NCBI GenBank assembly: GCA_002011125.2
Contig: MTMF02000018.1
Span: 1 to 37,034 of the forward strand
DNA: 37,034 bases
Source: Candidatus Hydrothermarchaeum profundi
GTDB taxonomy: Archaea > Hydrothermarchaeota > Hydrothermarchaeia > Hydrothermarchaeales > Hydrothermarchaeaceae
Direction: 5' to 3'
The position numbers were made by a program, and so were the translations under genes. The notes beneath the pieces were generated by a model, which was not told the DNA's origin, did not search any database, and saw only the letters and a list, made by a program, of their open reading frames with translations. Positions 332 through 37,034 of the stretch are shown here, piece by piece. Each line of letters begins with the position of its first letter. Position 1 is the stretch's first letter.

Positions 332-609
332 GATTCCTCCTCGATTTCATTCATCGCATCTTCTCCTATTTCTTCTGCTTTCCTCAAGCAGTATATTAAG
401 AAGTTTGCACCTATTTCTTCTGGAGATACTCCTTCTGGTGCTGTTGTATACATTTCTACAAAATTTTTAATTACATCGGTCGCGTTGTCTGCCCATTTCT
501 GGTAGAACATCTTTAGCATTTTTTCTGTGATTTCTTTTGGTTGTGCGTTTAAGTCTGCTAGTCTTTCTACTACTTCGTCTTCTATTTCAAATTCTATACT
601 TATTTTCAT
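328..609 (-). CDS. Hypothetical acidic protein
   Basis: GGTGA SD, operon packing. Confidence 0.75.
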   Translation of the reverse strand: MKISIEFEIEDEVVERLADLNAQPKEITEKMLKMFYQKWADNATDVIKNFVEMYTTAPEGVSPEEIGANFLIYCLRKAEEIGEDAMNEIEEES

Positions 610-615
610 ATAGCA

Positions 616-810
616 TCACCTTGTTTCTAATGATTCTTTTAATCGTTTTAATTCTGATTCTGTATATACTGTTTCCCCTCCTACTATTTTATATAATTTT
701 TCTCCGAATATATTTTTTCCTATATATCTGTATCTGTCTTGAAACTTTACACCTGTAATTTCATATTGTATCTTCATTCTCTTTTTTATTTTCTTATCCA
801 TGAATCCCAT
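616..810 (-). CDS. Basic 64-aa protein with MGFM N-terminus
   Basis: GGTGA SD places start at ATG 810 (MGFMDKKIKKR). Confidence 0.75.
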   Translation of the reverse strand: MGFMDKKIKKRMKIQYEITGVKFQDRYRYIGKNIFGEKLYKIVGGETVYTESELKRLKESLETR

Positions 811-838
811 TTTACTCACCTTGCTAAGTATTTTTATT

Positions 839-1255: not shown

Positions 1256-1743
1256 TCTCCTATATACATATAATCGGTATATTTTGATTCAACCACGTAT
1301 TCTTCAATACTGTCTGTCGTTAGTACTGCGTTGTTATCGAATACGTAGTATGCATTTTTCCTGTCACAGTAGAAGAATGTTACTATATGTGCTATCGGAG
1401 TATCGTTATACATAATCATCATTGATGGTTCTATACCTATATATGCTAAAAGACTTGCAGATAGCACGCTTAAGTCTTTACAGTCTCCATATCCTCTTTT
1501 TAGTGTAAGTTCAGGTGACTTTATGTCGTCTACTGTATCTTTTCTGTATTCAATTTGAGTCATTACATCCATGACGTCTTGTAGTGACTGTACTCCAAGT
1601 AGTTTACCTACAGATGGGTCTATGCTGTGATATGCTGTTATTAGTATGTATTTTAGTTCAGCTTCTTTAGTTTGTTTCGATGGGACAAGTATTTTGTATG
1701 TTGCATAAGATAGTATTGCTAGTGTAGCCAGTGTAAATAACAC
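1201..1743 (-). CDS. Membrane-anchored transglutaminase-like cysteine protease
   Basis: N-terminal TM; GDCKD...AHIV...VFD Cys-His-Asp triad. Confidence 0.8.
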   Translation of the reverse strand: MLFTLATLAILSYATYKILVPSKQTKEAELKYILITAYHSIDPSVGKLLGVQSLQDVMDVMTQIEYRKDTVDDIKSPELTLKRGYGDCKDLSVLSASLLAYIGIEPSMMIMYNDTPIAHIVTFFYCDRKNAYYVFDNNAVLTTDSIEEYVVESKYTDYMYIGECPTCLSESSQQIIGIYQ

Positions 1744-1747
1744 TATT

Positions 1748-1915
1748 TCACCTCCATAGTTTACCTATAACTAATCCTATGGCAAACCATGTTAGTTTTC
1801 TAATTGCTTCACTTTCTTCGTATGCACGTCTATACTCTTCTGCTGCTGTTTTTGTGGTTGTTACTACTTCAGCTGCTATTGGTTTAGCCAGTTTTTTCAT
1901 TTTCATAAAGCCCAT
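1748..1915 (-). CDS. 55-aa protein, MGFM N-terminus, C-terminal TM (not in ORF track)
   Basis: MGFMKMKKLAKP...LTWFAIGLVIGKLWR; fills gap exactly. Confidence 0.75.
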   Translation of the reverse strand: MGFMKMKKLAKPIAAEVVTTTKTAAEEYRRAYEESEAIRKLTWFAIGLVIGKLWR

Positions 1916-7760: not shown

Positions 7761-8057
7761 TCAACCCTCTACGAACCTATATATTATTCTTGCTGATTGT
7801 GAAGTACCGTCTGACTTTAACAAGACAATCGGCTTACCTTTTGTAGTAAATGGTTCATCTTCAAACGTATCTTCAGTTGCTATGTCTATCCACGTTTCAC
7901 CCATATCAAATGAAACGTATAGTGTATCTGTAGTAGATTTGTTTTCTACTATAATACTATAAACTGGTTTGTTGAAAATTACTGTAGTTATCTCTCCTGC
8001 TGTACTTGAAGTAGTTATGTCTTTTTGTTTCGGTACTCCAACTTTCACTTCTACCAT
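7761..8057 (-). CDS. Small beta-sandwich structural protein
   Basis: IIVENKS...LYVSFD pattern, similar to 10880..11194. Confidence 0.6.
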   Translation of the reverse strand: MVEVKVGVPKQKDITTSSTAGEITTVIFNKPVYSIIVENKSTTDTLYVSFDMGETWIDIATEDTFEDEPFTTKGKPIVLLKSDGTSQSARIIYRFVEG

Positions 8058-8734
8058 TAACCTAACACCTCCACAAGAGTTTCTCTACTAATATCAGTTT
8101 TTGTAACATCTGTAAGTGTGCCGTTGTTTTTGTATTGACTTAAATCATACCATGTGCCTGCTGAAGTGTCAATGGTGTTTCCAATTAGCCATAATACTAT
8201 TGAGTCGTAATCTACAGGGTCGTAAGGGTTATGATATATATGACTAATCTCTGAATCAGTGAGTTTTTTGTCATATAATATAGTTTCTAAAATAAAACCG
8301 TTGAGAAATTCAGTAGTAGATGAACCTGCTCCAACTCTAAAAACTGATGGGTCTACACCATCTTTATTTTGTACAGATATTGTAGTTTTGTTTGTATTTA
8401 AAGTTATATCAACAGAATCCCTATTTTTAGATATGACAATAAAGTTCCATTTGCTCGACAACGCATATAAACCTGATGTTGGATTATCCGACGTATTATC
8501 ACTATACTTTATCTGACCTTGTATTTCAAAAGTATTTGGTTCTATCCAGAATCGTGTTGGAACTGTGTTGAATAGCATTAGAGCATTACCAGCTGTATTT
8601 TTACCAGACACTTTAACCCACATTACTACTGTCCATTTAGATGAAATAAAAGTATCGCTAATTGACGATGAATCTGAAATAACAACGATACTACTACTCC
8701 CATTAAAACTACCTGCATAACCGTACTGAATCAT
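8057..8734 (-). CDS. LamG/concanavalin A-like protein 3
   Basis: FNG, TVVMWVK, WNFI, FLNGFI..LYDKKL, WYDLSQYKNNGT. Confidence 0.85.
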   Translation of the reverse strand: MIQYGYAGSFNGSSSIVVISDSSSISDTFISSKWTVVMWVKVSGKNTAGNALMLFNTVPTRFWIEPNTFEIQGQIKYSDNTSDNPTSGLYALSSKWNFIVISKNRDSVDITLNTNKTTISVQNKDGVDPSVFRVGAGSSTTEFLNGFILETILYDKKLTDSEISHIYHNPYDPVDYDSIVLWLIGNTIDTSAGTWYDLSQYKNNGTLTDVTKTDISRETLVEVLG

Positions 8735-9450
8735 CCAACAACCACCTCCTGTTCACGTGCAATGCTTGTCTTTGTCATACCGTATATTGTTCCGTTATTT
8801 TTGTATTGAGATAAGTCATACCATGTACCTGCTGAGGTGTCTATTGTGTTACCAGTTAGCCACAGTACAATTTTGTCTTTTTTAGGTGGGTCGTATGGGT
8901 TGTTATATGCTTTTTTGATTTGAGAGTTAGATAGTATATAATCATTCCAGATAATTACTATCGCAATAAGTCCATTGAAAACATTTATAGAGTTATTAGT
9001 TGGGTTTACTCCTATTCTTAGTGGTGATGTATCAGTATACCACTCACCGATAAGTGTAAATGATTTATCTATCTCACCATTTATATATATACCGTTATTT
9101 GTTACAGTTATACACTGCCATAACATTAGTTGTACATTTGATGACGACTCATTAGCCTCGTACGAAGAGCCATCACCGTGCACAAACAGAATAGTTCCAT
9201 TGGCAGTAACACCTAACCTATAGTTTGCTGTCGGCCATGCAGATGTAGGCGATTTTACAACTATATCTCTTAGTGCATCTCCATAATATTTAGGATAAAT
9301 CCATGCCATTATAGTTATTTTATTAACTAGTCTTAAACTACTATCGTCAGATATGTTTGTATAATCGCTTGTACCATTGAAACTCCCCACATAACCACTG
9401 TAAAATGGTATCTTCTGTTCTCCGTGAACTACTCGTTTTGTCTTTATCAA
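8731..9450 (-). CDS. LamG/concanavalin A-like protein 2
   Basis: ITIMAWIYP, IYINGE, LRIG, FNGLI. Confidence 0.9.
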   Translation of the reverse strand: MIKTKRVVHGEQKIPFYSGYVGSFNGTSDYTNISDDSSLRLVNKITIMAWIYPKYYGDALRDIVVKSPTSAWPTANYRLGVTANGTILFVHGDGSSYEANESSSNVQLMLWQCITVTNNGIYINGEIDKSFTLIGEWYTDTSPLRIGVNPTNNSINVFNGLIAIVIIWNDYILSNSQIKKAYNNPYDPPKKDKIVLWLTGNTIDTSAGTWYDLSQYKNNGTIYGMTKTSIAREQEVVVG

Positions 9451-10133
9451 TATACTGTCACCTCCTCTTGACCAACTGTTTGTAATGTAGCACCGTAATT
9501 TGTACCGTGATTTCCGTTACCTGACAAATCATACCACTTTCCAGCACTTGTGTCAAATGAACCTGCGTCTAACCAGAGTACAAGTCCGTCTGTGATTGGT
9601 GTTCTATTTTTTGTAATCTTACTAACTTCTGAGTCGTTTAACTTTCTATTATATATATATACTTTAGCTATATATCCGTTAAAATACCATGTAAATCCTC
9701 CATTATTACCTATAAACATGTCATTAGCTGTTGATATTAGAGCACCATCTGCTGCTATTGTCTGTACACTACTACCGTCCACATAAAACTTACCACCGTC
9801 GTTCATATTGTATGTTAGTCCAAGGAAATGCCACTCGTTATTTGGCATGTAATATCCTGTATCATTTACTGTCCAGTAATTATTTGTATATAAAGCCCAC
9901 CATACATACCTTGTTGGACCTTTTATTAGTATCTCATAAGCAAATCCTTTTAATAGTAAAGATTCGTGAGCTGCTCCGCTAGCTCCTTTTGAATATGCAA
10001 GAACAAAAACACTCAACTCATCTGTCATACCTAAACTATTGTCGTGTGATACAGACACACGGACAGAACCACCACTAAAAGATGGGACTTGATATGGTAT
10101 TCTACGTAAATATTGTTTAGTTTCGACGTCCAA
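9447..10133 (-). CDS. LamG/concanavalin A-like protein 1
   Basis: WHFLGLTY, FYVDG, FNGYIAKVYIYNRKL, GLVLWLDA, WYDLSGNGNHGT. Confidence 0.9.
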   Translation of the reverse strand: MDVETKQYLRRIPYQVPSFSGGSVRVSVSHDNSLGMTDELSVFVLAYSKGASGAAHESLLLKGFAYEILIKGPTRYVWWALYTNNYWTVNDTGYYMPNNEWHFLGLTYNMNDGGKFYVDGSSVQTIAADGALISTANDMFIGNNGGFTWYFNGYIAKVYIYNRKLNDSEVSKITKNRTPITDGLVLWLDAGSFDTSAGKWYDLSGNGNHGTNYGATLQTVGQEEVTVY

Positions 10134-30255: not shown

Positions 30256-30447
30256 TCAACCACCTGACCTAACAGCAAATACCACCGTGTTACTTGCAAC
30301 AAGATAACTGGCAATCACATCGTACTTCATCAGAACCTCAACAGCCTTTTTTATATCTTCCAGTTCTTCACGCTTAAAATTGCGTATAAGTCTAACACTT
30401 ACAACCAGCTTACTTCCGTCCGAACTTACATTAATTCTCCTATCCAT
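30256..30447 (-). CDS. Hypothetical protein
   Basis: GGAGGTGA SD directly after BHB element 1. Confidence 0.7.
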   Translation of the reverse strand: MDRRINVSSDGSKLVVSVRLIRNFKREELEDIKKAVEVLMKYDVIASYLVASNTVVFAVRSGG

Positions 30448-30462
30448 TTATATCACCTCCTT

Positions 30463-30624
30463 TAGAGCTCTCCCCCACTACCAGACGTACACTCATGCTG
30501 GAACGGGAGGATTTCGCAAACCACCACTATTAGTAAAGCTCACTGACTATCACTCTGGTACAATCATACACTGCGTGGTTCACGCCAGCACCAAGTATAC
30601 ATCTGATAGCGCTTAGGGGCTCTA
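30463..30624 (-). ncRNA. Structured RNA closed by a canonical BHB motif (element 1)
   Basis: UAGAGC-CCCU-AAG-19 bp stem ... stem-GGGG-AGA-GCUCUA; five G-U pairs that work only on the minus strand. Confidence 0.8.
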
Positions 30625-30885
30625 TGCACCTACCACTTCTCTATCAGTTCTTACCTCTACATCGGTAATATATATAACTTCAAGCAAAGCACAATACTTA
30701 ATAATCTTTACCACCTTCGGTCCAAACATACCCTGTAAGCGTTCATCATCTACAATCTTATCTATGTACAACACCCTAACATCGCTAGCATTTGAACGAT
30801 ACTCCTCTACACGTTTAGCTAAACCATCCATAGTAACATCCTTGACTACCTCATACTTTCTTTTTATTTTCTTTCCTACCAACAT
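30622..30885 (-). CDS. Hypothetical protein
   Basis: GGTGA SD before MLVGKK. Confidence 0.7.
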   Translation of the reverse strand: MLVGKKIKRKYEVVKDVTMDGLAKRVEEYRSNASDVRVLYIDKIVDDERLQGMFGPKVVKIIKYCALLEVIYITDVEVRTDREVVGA

Positions 30886-31099
30886 CTTTATCACCACCAT
30901 AAAACATATTAACCCTATACCTCCTCCAAAAAACCTCGAGTACAACCAAAGGACCAAATAGAACTATCATAGCACCCAATAACACCAGCAGTATTGACGA
31001 AACACCTAACCCGTATCCAACAATCATACCGCCGTATGTAAAGCAACACGAAACGCAAACAAACTCTGCATCACGTCTACTCAGACCCACTATCACCAC
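30851..31099 (-). CDS. 2-TM membrane protein
   Basis: Hydrophobic segments, basic tail. Confidence 0.6.
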   Translation of the reverse strand: MVIVGLSRRDAEFVCVSCCFTYGGMIVGYGLGVSSILLVLLGAMIVLFGPLVVLEVFWRRYRVNMFYGGDKDVGRKENKKKV

Positions 31100-31847
31100 C
31101 TACAAACATCTTAACCAGTAATTTATCTACCTCCTTTATCCTAGCATACACATCTTTACCCCTATTCTTTCTTATTATCCCGTACCACCTCTTCTCATTA
31201 TTGCTTATCTCAACTCCCATATCTATGATAGTATCGAACTTCCTGAAAACCGAACTCTCTAATCTTTCCCTTGTCTTAGTATCACCTATCGGATGACTAG
31301 TACATATAAAATTGTATCCCAAATCTACCATATCGTATATAACTTTCAGCAAATCATCGTATAACTTATTATACGACTGCCACGGCAGTGTAAACGTATC
31401 ACTATCCGTTATATTAAACACTTTCTCTCCTATAACATAGTAGCCCTGTGAAATAAACTTACCCTCAAGATACCTCCTATGTAGCTCCATCACCTCGTTA
31501 ACACTATCAAGTACAATCAGGTCAGCATCACTCTTTATAACTTTCTTATAAGCCTGTCTAAACCCACCTCTATACATTCCGTCATCCACTTTCTCTACCT
31601 TACCATCATACCTTGGAGTTATTACCATCGTAATATTAGCTAACGACTCATCACTAATCTTTCCTGACTCATACAACGCAATTATCTCCTTCTGAGTACC
31701 ATACTCAGGGTCAATATATATTACCTTATCTCCTCTCTCTGAACATTTAGATGCTACCATCAAAGCACAATGAGTCTTCCCAGTACCTGTATCTCCTCTC
31801 AACAACACCTTATACTTCAACTGCCTTCGTATCGAATCAATTTTCAT
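31077..31847 (-). CDS. RecA-superfamily ATPase, Sak4/AAA_24-like recombinase
   Basis: GDTGTGKT, YIDPEYG, LIVLDS, CTSH, KNR. Confidence 0.8.
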   Translation of the reverse strand: MKIDSIRRQLKYKVLLRGDTGTGKTHCALMVASKCSERGDKVIYIDPEYGTQKEIIALYESGKISDESLANITMVITPRYDGKVEKVDDGMYRGGFRQAYKKVIKSDADLIVLDSVNEVMELHRRYLEGKFISQGYYVIGEKVFNITDSDTFTLPWQSYNKLYDDLLKVIYDMVDLGYNFICTSHPIGDTKTRERLESSVFRKFDTIIDMGVEISNNEKRWYGIIRKNRGKDVYARIKEVDKLLVKMFVGGDSGSE

Positions 31848-31921
31848 CTAATACCTCCAACAGCTCATAATTACTAGCATAATTCCATCTCCAAACTTCT
31901 AACACTTCATCACACTTACAC

Positions 31922-32317
31922 TTATTCATATGCAACACATCCTAACGTCTTCATTAACATAAGTCTATATCCACTTGGAGTCAGACTAGGACTTCTTTCA
32001 GAATACCTAACAAACATCCTAAATGCCTCATCTTCATCACTAGTTATAGTGCACAAAAACGGCAAACTCGGACCAGTAGGTGGTATCCATACCAGCATAT
32101 ACTTGTACACCACATCGTCAACTGCAATCTTTTTAGTACTTTTAGCACTCTCAATATCTACATAACCCTCAAGTATCTCCTCTAACCTAAGTATCATCTC
32201 TACAACCTGTCTCAACGCCTCAGGACCGCGACTCTCTAAAACTTTACCCATAGCATCATAGTTATCTGCAAAACTTCTCCTAGTATCAAACATACCTCCA
32301 CTCCATTCAACTTTCAT
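31922..32317 (-). CDS. Hypothetical protein (true start MKVEW)
   Basis: GGGGTGA SD, which lies inside BHB element 2. Confidence 0.7.
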   Translation of the reverse strand: MKVEWSGGMFDTRRSFADNYDAMGKVLESRGPEALRQVVEMILRLEEILEGYVDIESAKSTKKIAVDDVVYKYMLVWIPPTGPSLPFLCTITSDEDEAFRMFVRYSERSPSLTPSGYRLMLMKTLGCVAYE

Positions 32318-32322
32318 ATTAT

Positions 32323-32409
32323 CACCCCATACCGCATGGGCAGCAGAAAAGGCACGGAGGGTGAATAAGTATGTATGGCACAATTCAACTGCCCATGTAT
32401 CGGCGGGTA
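32323..32409 (-). ncRNA. Structured RNA closed by a canonical BHB motif (element 2)
   Basis: UACCC-GCCG-AUA-CAUGGGCAG ... CUGCCCAUG-CGGU-AUG-GGGUG. Confidence 0.72.
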
Positions 32410-32410
32410 T

Positions 32411-32440
32411 AAAAAATAAAAGTCCAGCATTAGCTGGACT
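32411..32440 (-). terminator. Hairpin plus U-tract terminator
   Basis: 8-bp stem AGTCCAGC/GCTGGACT over the stop codon then TTTATTTTTT. Confidence 0.6.
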
Positions 32441-32729
32441 TCGGAACTTTCTTAACTGCAATAGCCACTATACCATCTTTCTTGCTGGAAGCAGCTGCCT
32501 TTACCTCAATACCAGCCCTATCACAAGCCTCGACAAGCTTCACTTTAGAGTAGTAGTCCTTGTATTTTATATCGCTACCACTGTGAAACTCCATTATCTC
32601 TTCAAATGTAAAGTGGTATGTCCCGGGGCTGGTTACGTGCTCCTTGACATAGGAAACAAGCCCATCCATATCCCAAGCTCCTCTAGCCTTCAACTCAATT
32701 TTCAATTCGTCAGATACCTTCTTAGGCAT
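32430..32729 (-). CDS. Hypothetical protein
   Basis: GGAGGTG SD. Confidence 0.75.
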   Translation of the reverse strand: MPKKVSDELKIELKARGAWDMDGLVSYVKEHVTSPGTYHFTFEEIMEFHSGSDIKYKDYYSKVKLVEACDRAGIEVKAAASSKKDGIVAIAVKKVPKSS

Positions 32730-36168: not shown

Positions 36169-36218
36169 CCTCCTGTAGCCTGAGCATCTACTCAGGCTAT
36201 ATCAGTGAATGAGAAAAA
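36159..36218 (-). promoter_or_regulatory. Leader hairpin with relaxed BHB-like motif (element 3)
   Basis: 12-bp outer stem, ACUG/CAGG, AUA bulge, 10-bp inner stem; covers SD and ATG. Confidence 0.55.
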
Positions 36219-36845: not shown

Positions 36846-37020
36846 AAAAATAAGCTTCTCTATATCCAATAAATTAAATATCTATAACACATTATTAATA
36901 CTATCTATAAAACATCTCAAATATTTCACGCTGTTAAATCTTTCTTAATATAAAACTATCAAAATATTCATATTCCATAAAATAAAAAGATATAAGATTT
37001 TTTATAAGATTATTTTTATA

Positions 37021-37034
37021 AAAAAAAAAAAAAG
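37021..37034 (-). repeat. Right inverted terminal repeat (A)13G
   Basis: Reverse complement of 1-14; A-run is 14 long including 37020. Confidence 0.75.

Follow-up and report, generated by a model that had tools for sequence, protein, structure and literature searches.

A virus-like element that was assembled together with an archaeal genome carries RNA structures of the kind that the archaeal splicing enzymes EndA and RtcB act on, and we consider it probable, well short of certain, that these enzymes excise the corresponding RNAs, which lie in viral leaders or between cistrons, and close them into circles. The structures are strict bulge-helix-bulge (BHB) elements. Two of them, E1 and E2, lie in the window, by which we mean the whole stretch of 37,034 nucleotides that was analysed, and the third, L013a, lies in a related metagenomic virus fragment. 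EndA and RtcB are known to splice tRNA, rRNA and cellular mRNA of two kinds. What would be new is the setting, i.e., three strict BHB instances in two related virus-like elements, for a splicing route that is known from cells.

Results

The element and its presumed host

The window is the whole of contig C18 (37,034 bp) in an archaeal assembly of 19 contigs and 2.19 Mb. All of its ORFs of at least 100 aa outside overlaps are on the minus strand, which as the coding strand is rich in purines and poor in C, and the termini consist of a C followed by a T-run at one end and the inverted complement at the other. The Pfam matches of the 83 ORFs of the element include a Rad3-type helicase, an AAA_24 ATPase, a Dam-type methylase, zinc ribbons and three concanavalin-like lectin-fold proteins, as well as a weak match to PCNA. 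In PHROGs, three paralogues weakly match an uncharacterised viral family and a tail protein. Among deposited phages the ATPase had no match, while the helicase was at best 31% identical to proteins of haloarchaeal tailed viruses, and the element proteins that were searched against deposited plasmids had no match there. We regard the window as a virus-like extrachromosomal element that is likely a virus. No family of RNA endonucleases or ligases was matched by any of the 83 ORFs in Pfam, so excision would depend on the host.

The putative host is tied to the element by shared assembly membership. None of the 110 CRISPR spacers in three arrays has a match to the element along the entire spacer, the best match covering 18 of 37 nt. 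Two DNA sequencing runs, from which this DNA may derive, yielded the same contigs, free of variants and joints. The host belongs to a small phylum with 38 species genomes, in which a single class makes up the entire phylum. High rRNA GC in a low-GC genome is an indicator of temperature by the GC-temperature rule, and the host, with 60% GC in its 16S fragment and 39% GC in its genome, is read as a thermophile; its rRNA spacer carries tRNA-Ala.

A strict BHB between a stop codon and a Shine-Dalgarno sequence

E1 and its surroundings are made up of the following features, given in the order in which they would be transcribed, with the basis of each in brackets.

30622-30957, minus: upstream ORF, 111 aa from its longest start (TTG), with no Pfam family (ORF list, Pfam)
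30666-30677, minus: TATA-like run UUAUAUAUAUUA, which lies within the upstream ORF at its 3' end (read from the sequence alone)
30463-30624, minus: E1, the whole BHB element from outer helix to outer helix, 162 nt (sequence, MFE fold)
30619-30624, minus: 5' strand of the outer helix, UAGAGC, 6 bp with 30468-30463 (sequence)
30615-30618, minus: 5' strand of the central 4-bp helix, CCCU, with three C-G pairs and one U.G pair (sequence)
30612-30614, minus: 5' bulge AAG, predicted EndA cut 30613/30612 (geometry; host tRNA-Lys intron)
30585-30611, minus: 5' strand of the inner stem, 19 bp, one unpaired G, 7 bp (sequence, fold)
30502-30584, minus: enclosed core, 83 nt, with an unpaired C-rich patch that includes CCUCC at 30510-30506 (sequence, fold)
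30476-30501, minus: 3' strand of the inner stem (sequence, fold)
30472-30475, minus: 3' strand of the central helix, GGGG (sequence)
30469-30471, minus: 3' bulge AGA, predicted EndA cut 30470/30469 (geometry; host tRNA-Lys intron)
30463-30468, minus: 3' strand of the outer helix, GCUCUA (sequence)
30470-30612, minus: predicted excised and circularised RNA, 143 nt (BHB geometry, tRNA-Lys cut sites)
30445-30460, minus: Shine-Dalgarno sequence (SD) GGAGGUGA at 30460-30453 and AUG at 30447-30445 of the downstream 63-aa ORF (sequence)

The inner stem pairs 30611-30593 with 30494-30476 (19 bp) and 30591-30585 with 30501-30495 (7 bp), 26 bp in total, and seven of the 36 base pairs in E1 overall are G.U. 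The element fits its gap closely: the UAG with which the outer helix begins terminates the upstream 111-aa ORF, the SD GGAGGUGA starts 2 nt past the other end of the outer helix, at a distance of 8 nt from the predicted 3' cut, and no minus-strand ORF of at least 30 aa crosses E1. The gap is 174 nt long, which places it among the largest of the 14 gaps of at least 70 nt in size, and it is by far the most structured of the 14. It is also located at the border between two gene blocks. If the TATA-like run at 30677-30666 is a promoter, transcription would presumably start about 20 nt before E1, given the usual spacing rule for archaeal promoters, and with such a promoter of its own E1 could be a 5'-leader intron instead of a part of the early polycistronic mRNA that the earlier note assumes.

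The minimum-energy fold of E1 reproduces the motif at -68.6 kcal/mol (z -5.37), a value that none of 200 shuffles equalled, and the downstream SD is already unpaired in this precursor fold. The plus strand of the same region folds to -42.4 kcal/mol with a z of only -2.0. For the predicted 143-nt circle the circular fold has an energy of -52.2 kcal/mol. An earlier note on this DNA had described this anatomy on the minus strand (outer helix of 6 bp, central helix of 4 bp, 3-nt bulges, inner stem of 19+7 bp), with an exact fit from stop codon to SD and with G-U pairs that are valid only in the minus-strand RNA, and on these points our analysis agrees with it throughout. The further hairpins that it placed inside the core could form, but they are not part of the core's minimum-energy fold and were not confirmed by comparison. 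Structured RNAs show up as GC peaks in AT-rich thermophile genomes, and local GC does peak at both elements in the window, at 0.51 for E1 and 0.48 for E2 compared with a mean of 0.37 and a standard deviation of 0.05.

As a long inverted repeat whose non-coding gap is among the largest, E1 could also function as DNA, be it as an origin of replication, a palindrome bound by proteins or a repeat of transposon type. However, 7 of the 36 pairs are G.U pairs, which become A-C mismatches on the other strand, the plus-strand fold is far weaker, E1 is present as a single copy in the assembly, and the same strand asymmetry is seen again in L013a (below). A MITE or DNA palindrome was rejected on the copy number, the seven G.U pairs and the strong strand asymmetry, and we consider a role at the level of DNA extremely improbable.

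Chance is a very unlikely explanation for the motif

Strict BHBs were located with a scanner that demands an outer helix of at least 5 bp, a central helix of 4 bp, 3-nt bulges and an inner helix of at least 8 bp within a span of 24-400 nt, with G.U pairs allowed. Hits were ranked by pair strength, and the mirrored geometry served as control. On both strands of the 19 contigs there were 172 canonical and 186 mirrored hits. BHB-like arrangements are thus common at loose thresholds, where the canonical geometry is about as frequent as its mirror image and the hits are mostly noise, so that the top scores alone carry weight. The abundance of loose hits is what speaks for a chance hairpin with a chance BHB, but the top scores do not fit this explanation. 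E1 has the highest score in the 2.19-Mb assembly, 51, with a mirrored maximum of 48. In dinucleotide-preserving shuffles of the viral coding strand, 51 was reached in 0 of 400 and 47, the score of E2, in 1 of 400, and two hits of at least 47 on one strand, as on the real viral strand with its 51 and 47, never occurred (0 of 400). Chance is further opposed by the shuffles for L013a (0 of 1000, see below), by the fold of E1 at z -5.37 and by the exact fit of E1 to a non-coding gap from stop codon to SD, and we give it almost no credence.

The scanner also picks up the host tRNA-Lys intron at its correct length of 39 nt. Apart from C9:351435-351770, the other BHB-like hits on the host chromosome fall within long ORFs and fold weakly, and no strong long-range BHB was found for spans of 401-4000 nt.

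Host substrates and enzymes

The host genes provide a reference for both the handedness of the motif and the positions of the cuts. In the host tRNA-Lys(UUU), with an intron of 39 nt, the 5' strand runs through an outer helix of 5 bp, a central helix of 4 bp, a 3-nt bulge and the inner helix. Cuts after the second nucleotide of both bulges are the only ones that give this tRNA back its 7-nt anticodon loop, which fixes the cut sites. The flanks of the host 16S gene co-fold into a 16-bp helix and a 4-bp helix with AAA bulges, in the same order as in tRNA-Lys. E1 has the handedness of both substrates (5' strand: outer helix, central helix, bulge, inner helix), and because its inner helix is long it resembles the rRNA processing stem more than the tRNA intron. 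The bulge orientation that the earlier note had called canonical is accordingly that of two host substrates, and its rule of a cut after the second bulge nucleotide, yielding 143 nt from 30612 to 30470, is also what the host tRNA-Lys gene gives.

The EndA and RtcB route put forward in the same note has both of its enzymes encoded in the assembly. EndA is a single gene (C9:1799005-1799514, 169 aa) with N and C domains, which matches PF01974 at 123.6 bits, and chain 1a79 along its full length. This chain we take to be the homotetrameric EndA of Methanocaldococcus, a type that requires the strict motif. RtcB (C9:573208-574512) is found with PF01139 at 576.8 bits. EndA recognition is independent of sequence, and a strict BHB that is accessible is expected to be cut.

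The processing of E1 would then proceed in three steps. Judging from sequence and folding, the viral transcript would fold such that the 26-bp stem presents a strict helix-bulge-helix-bulge-helix. EndA would cut at 30613/30612 and 30470/30469, after the second nucleotide of each bulge as in the host tRNA-Lys intron. If the products follow the EndA/RtcB pathway, RtcB would ligate them to a 143-nt circle (30612-30470) and a transcript that joins 30613 to 30469. The 70-nt RNA of E2 and the 150-nt RNA from L013 578-744 would probably be handled like E1. In the published accounts, cleavage by EndA produces 2',3'-cyclic phosphate and 5'-OH ends, and RtcB circularises the intron and joins the exons (PMC7714728, PMC9014305, PMC12558985); circular products of EndA and RtcB are described for Thermococcus (PMC9014305).

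It is also conceivable that EndA cuts the transcript without any rejoining. E1 would then serve as a site of mRNA processing, at which cistrons are separated and a 5'-OH end is left just ahead of the downstream SD. The 8 nt between the 3' cut and the SD and the position of E1 at the border of two gene blocks would both suit such a site. However, the 6-bp outer helix holds the exon ends, as in the tRNA and rRNA substrates that are ligated by RtcB (PMC9014305), and RtcB is present in the assembly. We regard cutting without ligation as very unlikely.

Two further strict BHB elements

The second element of the window, E2, is located in the gap that precedes the ORF with its start at 32317.

32410-32440, minus: hairpin and U/A-rich run, terminator-like or TATA-like, directly upstream of E2 (sequence)
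32323-32409, minus: E2, second strict BHB element (sequence, scanner score 47, MFE fold shows the motif)

E2 is the second-best scanner hit on the viral strand. It is built from an outer helix of 5 bp, a central helix of 4 bp, the bulges AUA and AUG and an inner stem of 10 bp, and the predicted excised part is 70 nt long (32398-32329). The 3' strand of its outer helix shares nucleotides with the SD of the downstream ORF (start at 32317). Two observations count against excision at this site: the U/A-rich run, if it is a promoter, would put the start of transcription inside E2, and a 38-aa ORF (32430-32314) spans E2 exactly.

Homologues of the element's ATPase, which is encoded nearby, are about 50% identical to it in metagenomes, and three metagenome fragments, L013, L014 and L015, from among the matches listed (at least three), were compared with the window. 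L013 is a 4-kb metagenomic virus fragment with an ATPase that is 52% identical, and it contains a strict BHB, L013a, at positions 578-744 of its coding strand, beginning 1 nt past a stop codon, with an inner stem of 17 bp and an excised part of 150 nt. Its score of 48 was reached in 0 of 1000 shuffles, the maximum among them being 45, and it folds better in sense (z -4.31) than in antisense (z -1.97). Nevertheless it is the weakest of the three BHBs: two of the four central pairs are G.U, and the central helix has a low pairing probability, is not part of the minimum-energy fold and competes with a 7-bp alternative register that is preferred by the thermodynamic ensemble. A strict BHB is missing from both strands of the other two of the three relatives, namely L014 and L015, the latter a distant one (28% identity). 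In other words, one relative of the three compared (L013) has the motif, at another intergenic site than E1 and around an unrelated core.

Architecture recurs, enclosed sequence does not

L013a is flanked by homologues of the window genes 33595-33260 and 33247-32741, which in the window are separated by a spacer of 12 nt. The genes around E1, in turn, have no counterpart in L013 or L014, and the intergenic site homologous to that of E1 is absent from the relatives compared. Between the cores of E1 and L013a there is no significant similarity: 108 of 2000 shuffles do as well as the real pair, and the scores of the reversed and reverse-complement controls are no different. The shared motifs that were first suspected in the two cores were dropped after the shuffle test. 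The consensus fold of the two cores is weak, and the comparison does not justify a covariance model, with MAFFT misaligning stems that covary. No homology is detectable among the enclosed sequences of E1, E2 and L013a, and this lack of conservation across the three weakens the idea of a sequence-specific ncRNA. What recurs is the architecture rather than the content, i.e., a strict BHB, a long GC-rich stem and a length of 70-150 nt, on the coding strand and in a tight intergenic fit. On balance, the earlier note's interpretation of E1 as an excised RNA is partly supported, while its early polycistronic mRNA and its stable ncRNA are conjectural.

Searches further afield were largely negative. 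The DNA of E1 was found in none of three genomes of the same family, and in the class, whose 38 genomes make up the whole phylum, the ATPase gave only weak P-loop hits and its profile found only itself (1 of 38). Viral contigs contained no relatives, neither in single-protein scans nor with the profiles A1, A2 and A3, and the scan of genome contigs for relatives returned two bacterial P-loop hits that are irrelevant. The homologues P0007, P0009 and P0012 are encoded on contigs of 29-30 kb.

Known RNA classes were considered as well. Rfam gave no hit in the whole window at the gathering score, and in E-value mode the regions 30300-32500 of the window and 500-900 of L013 gave noise (E 0.2-1.7). 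A tRNA intron or a split or permuted tRNA was rejected, as ARAGORN predicts no tRNA either in the window or in the circularised excised RNAs, and a processing stem for an rRNA was rejected as no Rfam family matches E1. Box C/D sRNAs, which are often circular in hyperthermophiles, have a C box (RUGAUGA) and a D box (CUGA) near their ends; E1 has no Rfam snoRNA match above noise and no such boxes near its ends by eye, and this class was likewise rejected. When the cores were compared with possible host targets, the only match was between E2 and a nadA-like gene, in antisense over 17 nt (E 0.006), and we regard it as chance unless evidence to the contrary appears.

The lack of a conserved core would also be compatible with another role for E1, that of a stable hairpin which is never cut and acts as an mRNA stabiliser, as a roadblock to ribosomes or exonucleases, or as a pause or termination signal, with the BHB unused. 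Hairpins without a BHB do occur ahead of SDs in this virus group, for example at 36200-36177 in the window and at 755-830 in L013, and the SD downstream of E1 is free with or without the element. However, an uncut hairpin leaves unexplained the ten extra pairs at an exact 7-by-7 offset, which given the long stem and the base composition of the strand have a chance of about 1e-4, and it leaves unexplained that the BHB occurs three times (E1, E2, L013a). Moreover, an accessible strict BHB is expected to be cut where EndA is present. The intron in the leader of HVO_1309 is a case of this kind (PMC7714728). We consider the uncut hairpin unlikely, and excision with circularisation remains the reading that we prefer.

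An unpaired CCUCC patch

In the predicted circles a CCUCC patch is unpaired with a probability of 0.99 (E1) and 1.00 (E2). The motif occurs 12 times on the coding strand of the window, six of these within one coding repeat. In L013 it occurs once, at 797, in the intergenic region of L013a and outside the excised part. Composition-matched shuffles of the three intergenic regions give probabilities of 0.046, 0.105 and 0.227 for CCUCC, and the joint probability of about 0.001 is overstated in its significance, the motif having been chosen after it was seen. On visual inspection, both the patches and the sequence next to them look like the 16S rRNA 3' end of the host. The patch is a lead rather than a finding. 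It could be imagined that this virus group has BHB cassettes which depend on host enzymes, fit into any intergenic gap and make a heat-stable circle of any RNA they enclose, and that an unpaired, anti-SD-like CCUCC then binds ribosome binding sites or factors of the 16S tail and in this way controls translation during infection, a scheme that we judge decidedly unlikely.

Discussion

The elements can be compared with several precedents of archaeal BHB splicing. In the main texts of the open-access literature searched, we found no BHB-bounded excisable RNA of an archaeal virus or plasmid, in line with the earlier note, whose author was not aware of a viral system of this kind.

The nearest precedents for E1 are the 5'-UTR intron of HVO_1309 and the cbf5 intron. 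The former is a 46-nt BHB intron of Haloferax volcanii that is cut by EndA and was recovered as a circle (PMC7714728). This piece of leader is non-coding and bounded by a BHB, as E1 is, and its removal leaves the reading frame unchanged (PMC7714728). It differs in that it is cellular, is conserved in haloarchaea and measures just 46 nt (PMC7714728), whereas E1, E2 and L013a belong to virus-like elements, measure 70-150 nt, have stems of 10-26 bp, variable sites in leaders or intercistronic gaps and unconserved sequences, and are known here from nucleotide sequence only. The BHB intron in the cbf5 pre-mRNA of Crenarchaeota is likewise an instance of EndA-type splicing in the transcript of a protein gene (PMC7714728, PMC2738675). 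It interrupts the coding sequence, however, and must be spliced for the protein to be made, while E1 and E2 lie outside the reading frames.

The stems that process 16S and 23S rRNA also contain BHBs and give circular pre-rRNA intermediates (PMC9014305, PMC12558985). As in E1, a strict BHB closes off a helix of considerable length, which has 26 bp in E1 and 16 bp in the stem of the host 16S, but E1 encloses no rRNA according to Rfam, spans only 143 nt and is borne by a virus. Introns of tRNAs have the same motif with the same predicted cut positions, and a circular tRNA intron can be a functional small RNA, the tRNA-Trp intron being a C/D box sRNA that is found as a circle (PMC12558985). E1 differs from them in having no surrounding tRNA by ARAGORN and no C/D boxes by eye. 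Finally, the omega-RNAs of archaeal IS200/IS605 elements are circular and lack a BHB, and a route independent of EndA has been proposed for them (PMC12558985). E1 is comparable in being a small RNA on a mobile element with a predicted circular form, and unlike these RNAs it has a textbook BHB.

If E1 is spliced, the question is which of the two products matters. Splicing would alter no reading frame and would not free a ribosome binding site, and with no frame changed and the SD already unpaired, the removal of E1 has no obvious benefit. We lean slightly toward the circle, a heat-stable and exonuclease-resistant viral RNA, as the selected product, and away from removal alone being what counts. 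The lean is based on this absence of a benefit for frame or ribosome binding, on stems that are far longer than recognition needs, and on the local GC peaks. The absent conservation of the core and the variable position are compatible equally well with a regulatory intron and with a selfish one.

The prediction is sharp, consisting of exact junction coordinates, and it can be tested cheaply. If it is true, this would be the first archaeal virus to use the tRNA-splicing machinery of its host on its own transcripts, making circular RNAs, and a viral branch would be added to archaeal circRNA biology. The elements would then represent natural, compact circularisation cassettes that function at high temperature, and their existence would raise the question of BHB elements moving between viral intergenic sites.

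The second bulge-helix-bulge element and its neighbours

Besides E1, the main bulge-helix-bulge (BHB) element studied (30463-30624, minus strand), the window contains a second strict one, E2.

32323-32409, minus strand: E2, second strict BHB element, predicted excised part 70 nt

The element is spanned exactly by a 38-aa ORF (32430-32314, minus strand), and is followed directly downstream on the same strand by the ORF starting at 32317, while the stretch immediately upstream (32440-32410, minus strand) holds a hairpin and a U/A-rich run.

Within the E2 core, 17 nt (32345-32361, minus strand) are exactly antisense to positions 592410-592426 of contig C9 in the host assembly G000 (blastn-short E 0.006). 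The host side of this match is the 3′ end of a gene that, judged by its translation, looks like quinolinate synthase (nadA). In the predicted folds, the cores of E1 and E2 each leave a CCUCC unpaired (30506-30510 and 32356-32360 respectively, both minus strand); these patches resemble anti-Shine-Dalgarno sequences, and the sequence flanking them is similar to the 3′-terminal part of 16S rRNA in the host.

Structured intergenic regions in related fragments and in the host

L013, a metagenomic virus fragment related to the window element, has two adjacent structures:

578-744, plus strand: L013a, strict BHB element, inner stem 17 bp, predicted excised part 150 nt
752-835, plus strand: second GC-rich hairpin, just 3′ of L013a, 11-bp stem, z -3.3

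At the intergenic site occupied by L013a, the corresponding spacer in the window is only 12 nt long. The base of the second hairpin is BHB-like, but its 5′ bulge is only 1 nt; the sole CCUCC of the entire L013 coding strand falls within this hairpin.

Two further regions are without a BHB: a 10-bp GC-rich hairpin in the window (36177-36200, minus strand), which lies directly 5′ of a Shine-Dalgarno sequence and has a T/A-rich promoter-like run upstream, and the intergenic region 5′ of the helicase gene in L014, another related fragment (1588-1836, plus strand), with two direct repeats of ~18 nt and a perfect 16-bp palindrome. A host intergenic region (C9:351435-351770, plus strand), which has no ORF longer than 40 aa, takes a BHB shape in its minimum-energy fold, with a span of ~315 nt. 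This shape may be due to chance, because scores as high as its 46 also occur in the mirrored-geometry control, the same scan with reversed handedness.

Other features of the element and its host

The host assembly carries three CRISPR arrays (on C1, C6 and C9), each with a different repeat, the one at C9:770731-789501 being ~19 kb long. None of the 110 spacers read from these arrays matches the window element over the full spacer length. The window begins with a C and a T-run (1-15) and finishes with an A-run and a G (37020-37034), either a short inverted terminal repeat or a homopolymer assembly artefact.

8057-10133, minus strand: three adjacent paralogous ORFs, concanavalin-like lectin fold (Laminin_G_3)

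These paralogues match a single PHROG, itself uncharacterised, and have a weak match to a tail protein; they are candidates for receptor binding.
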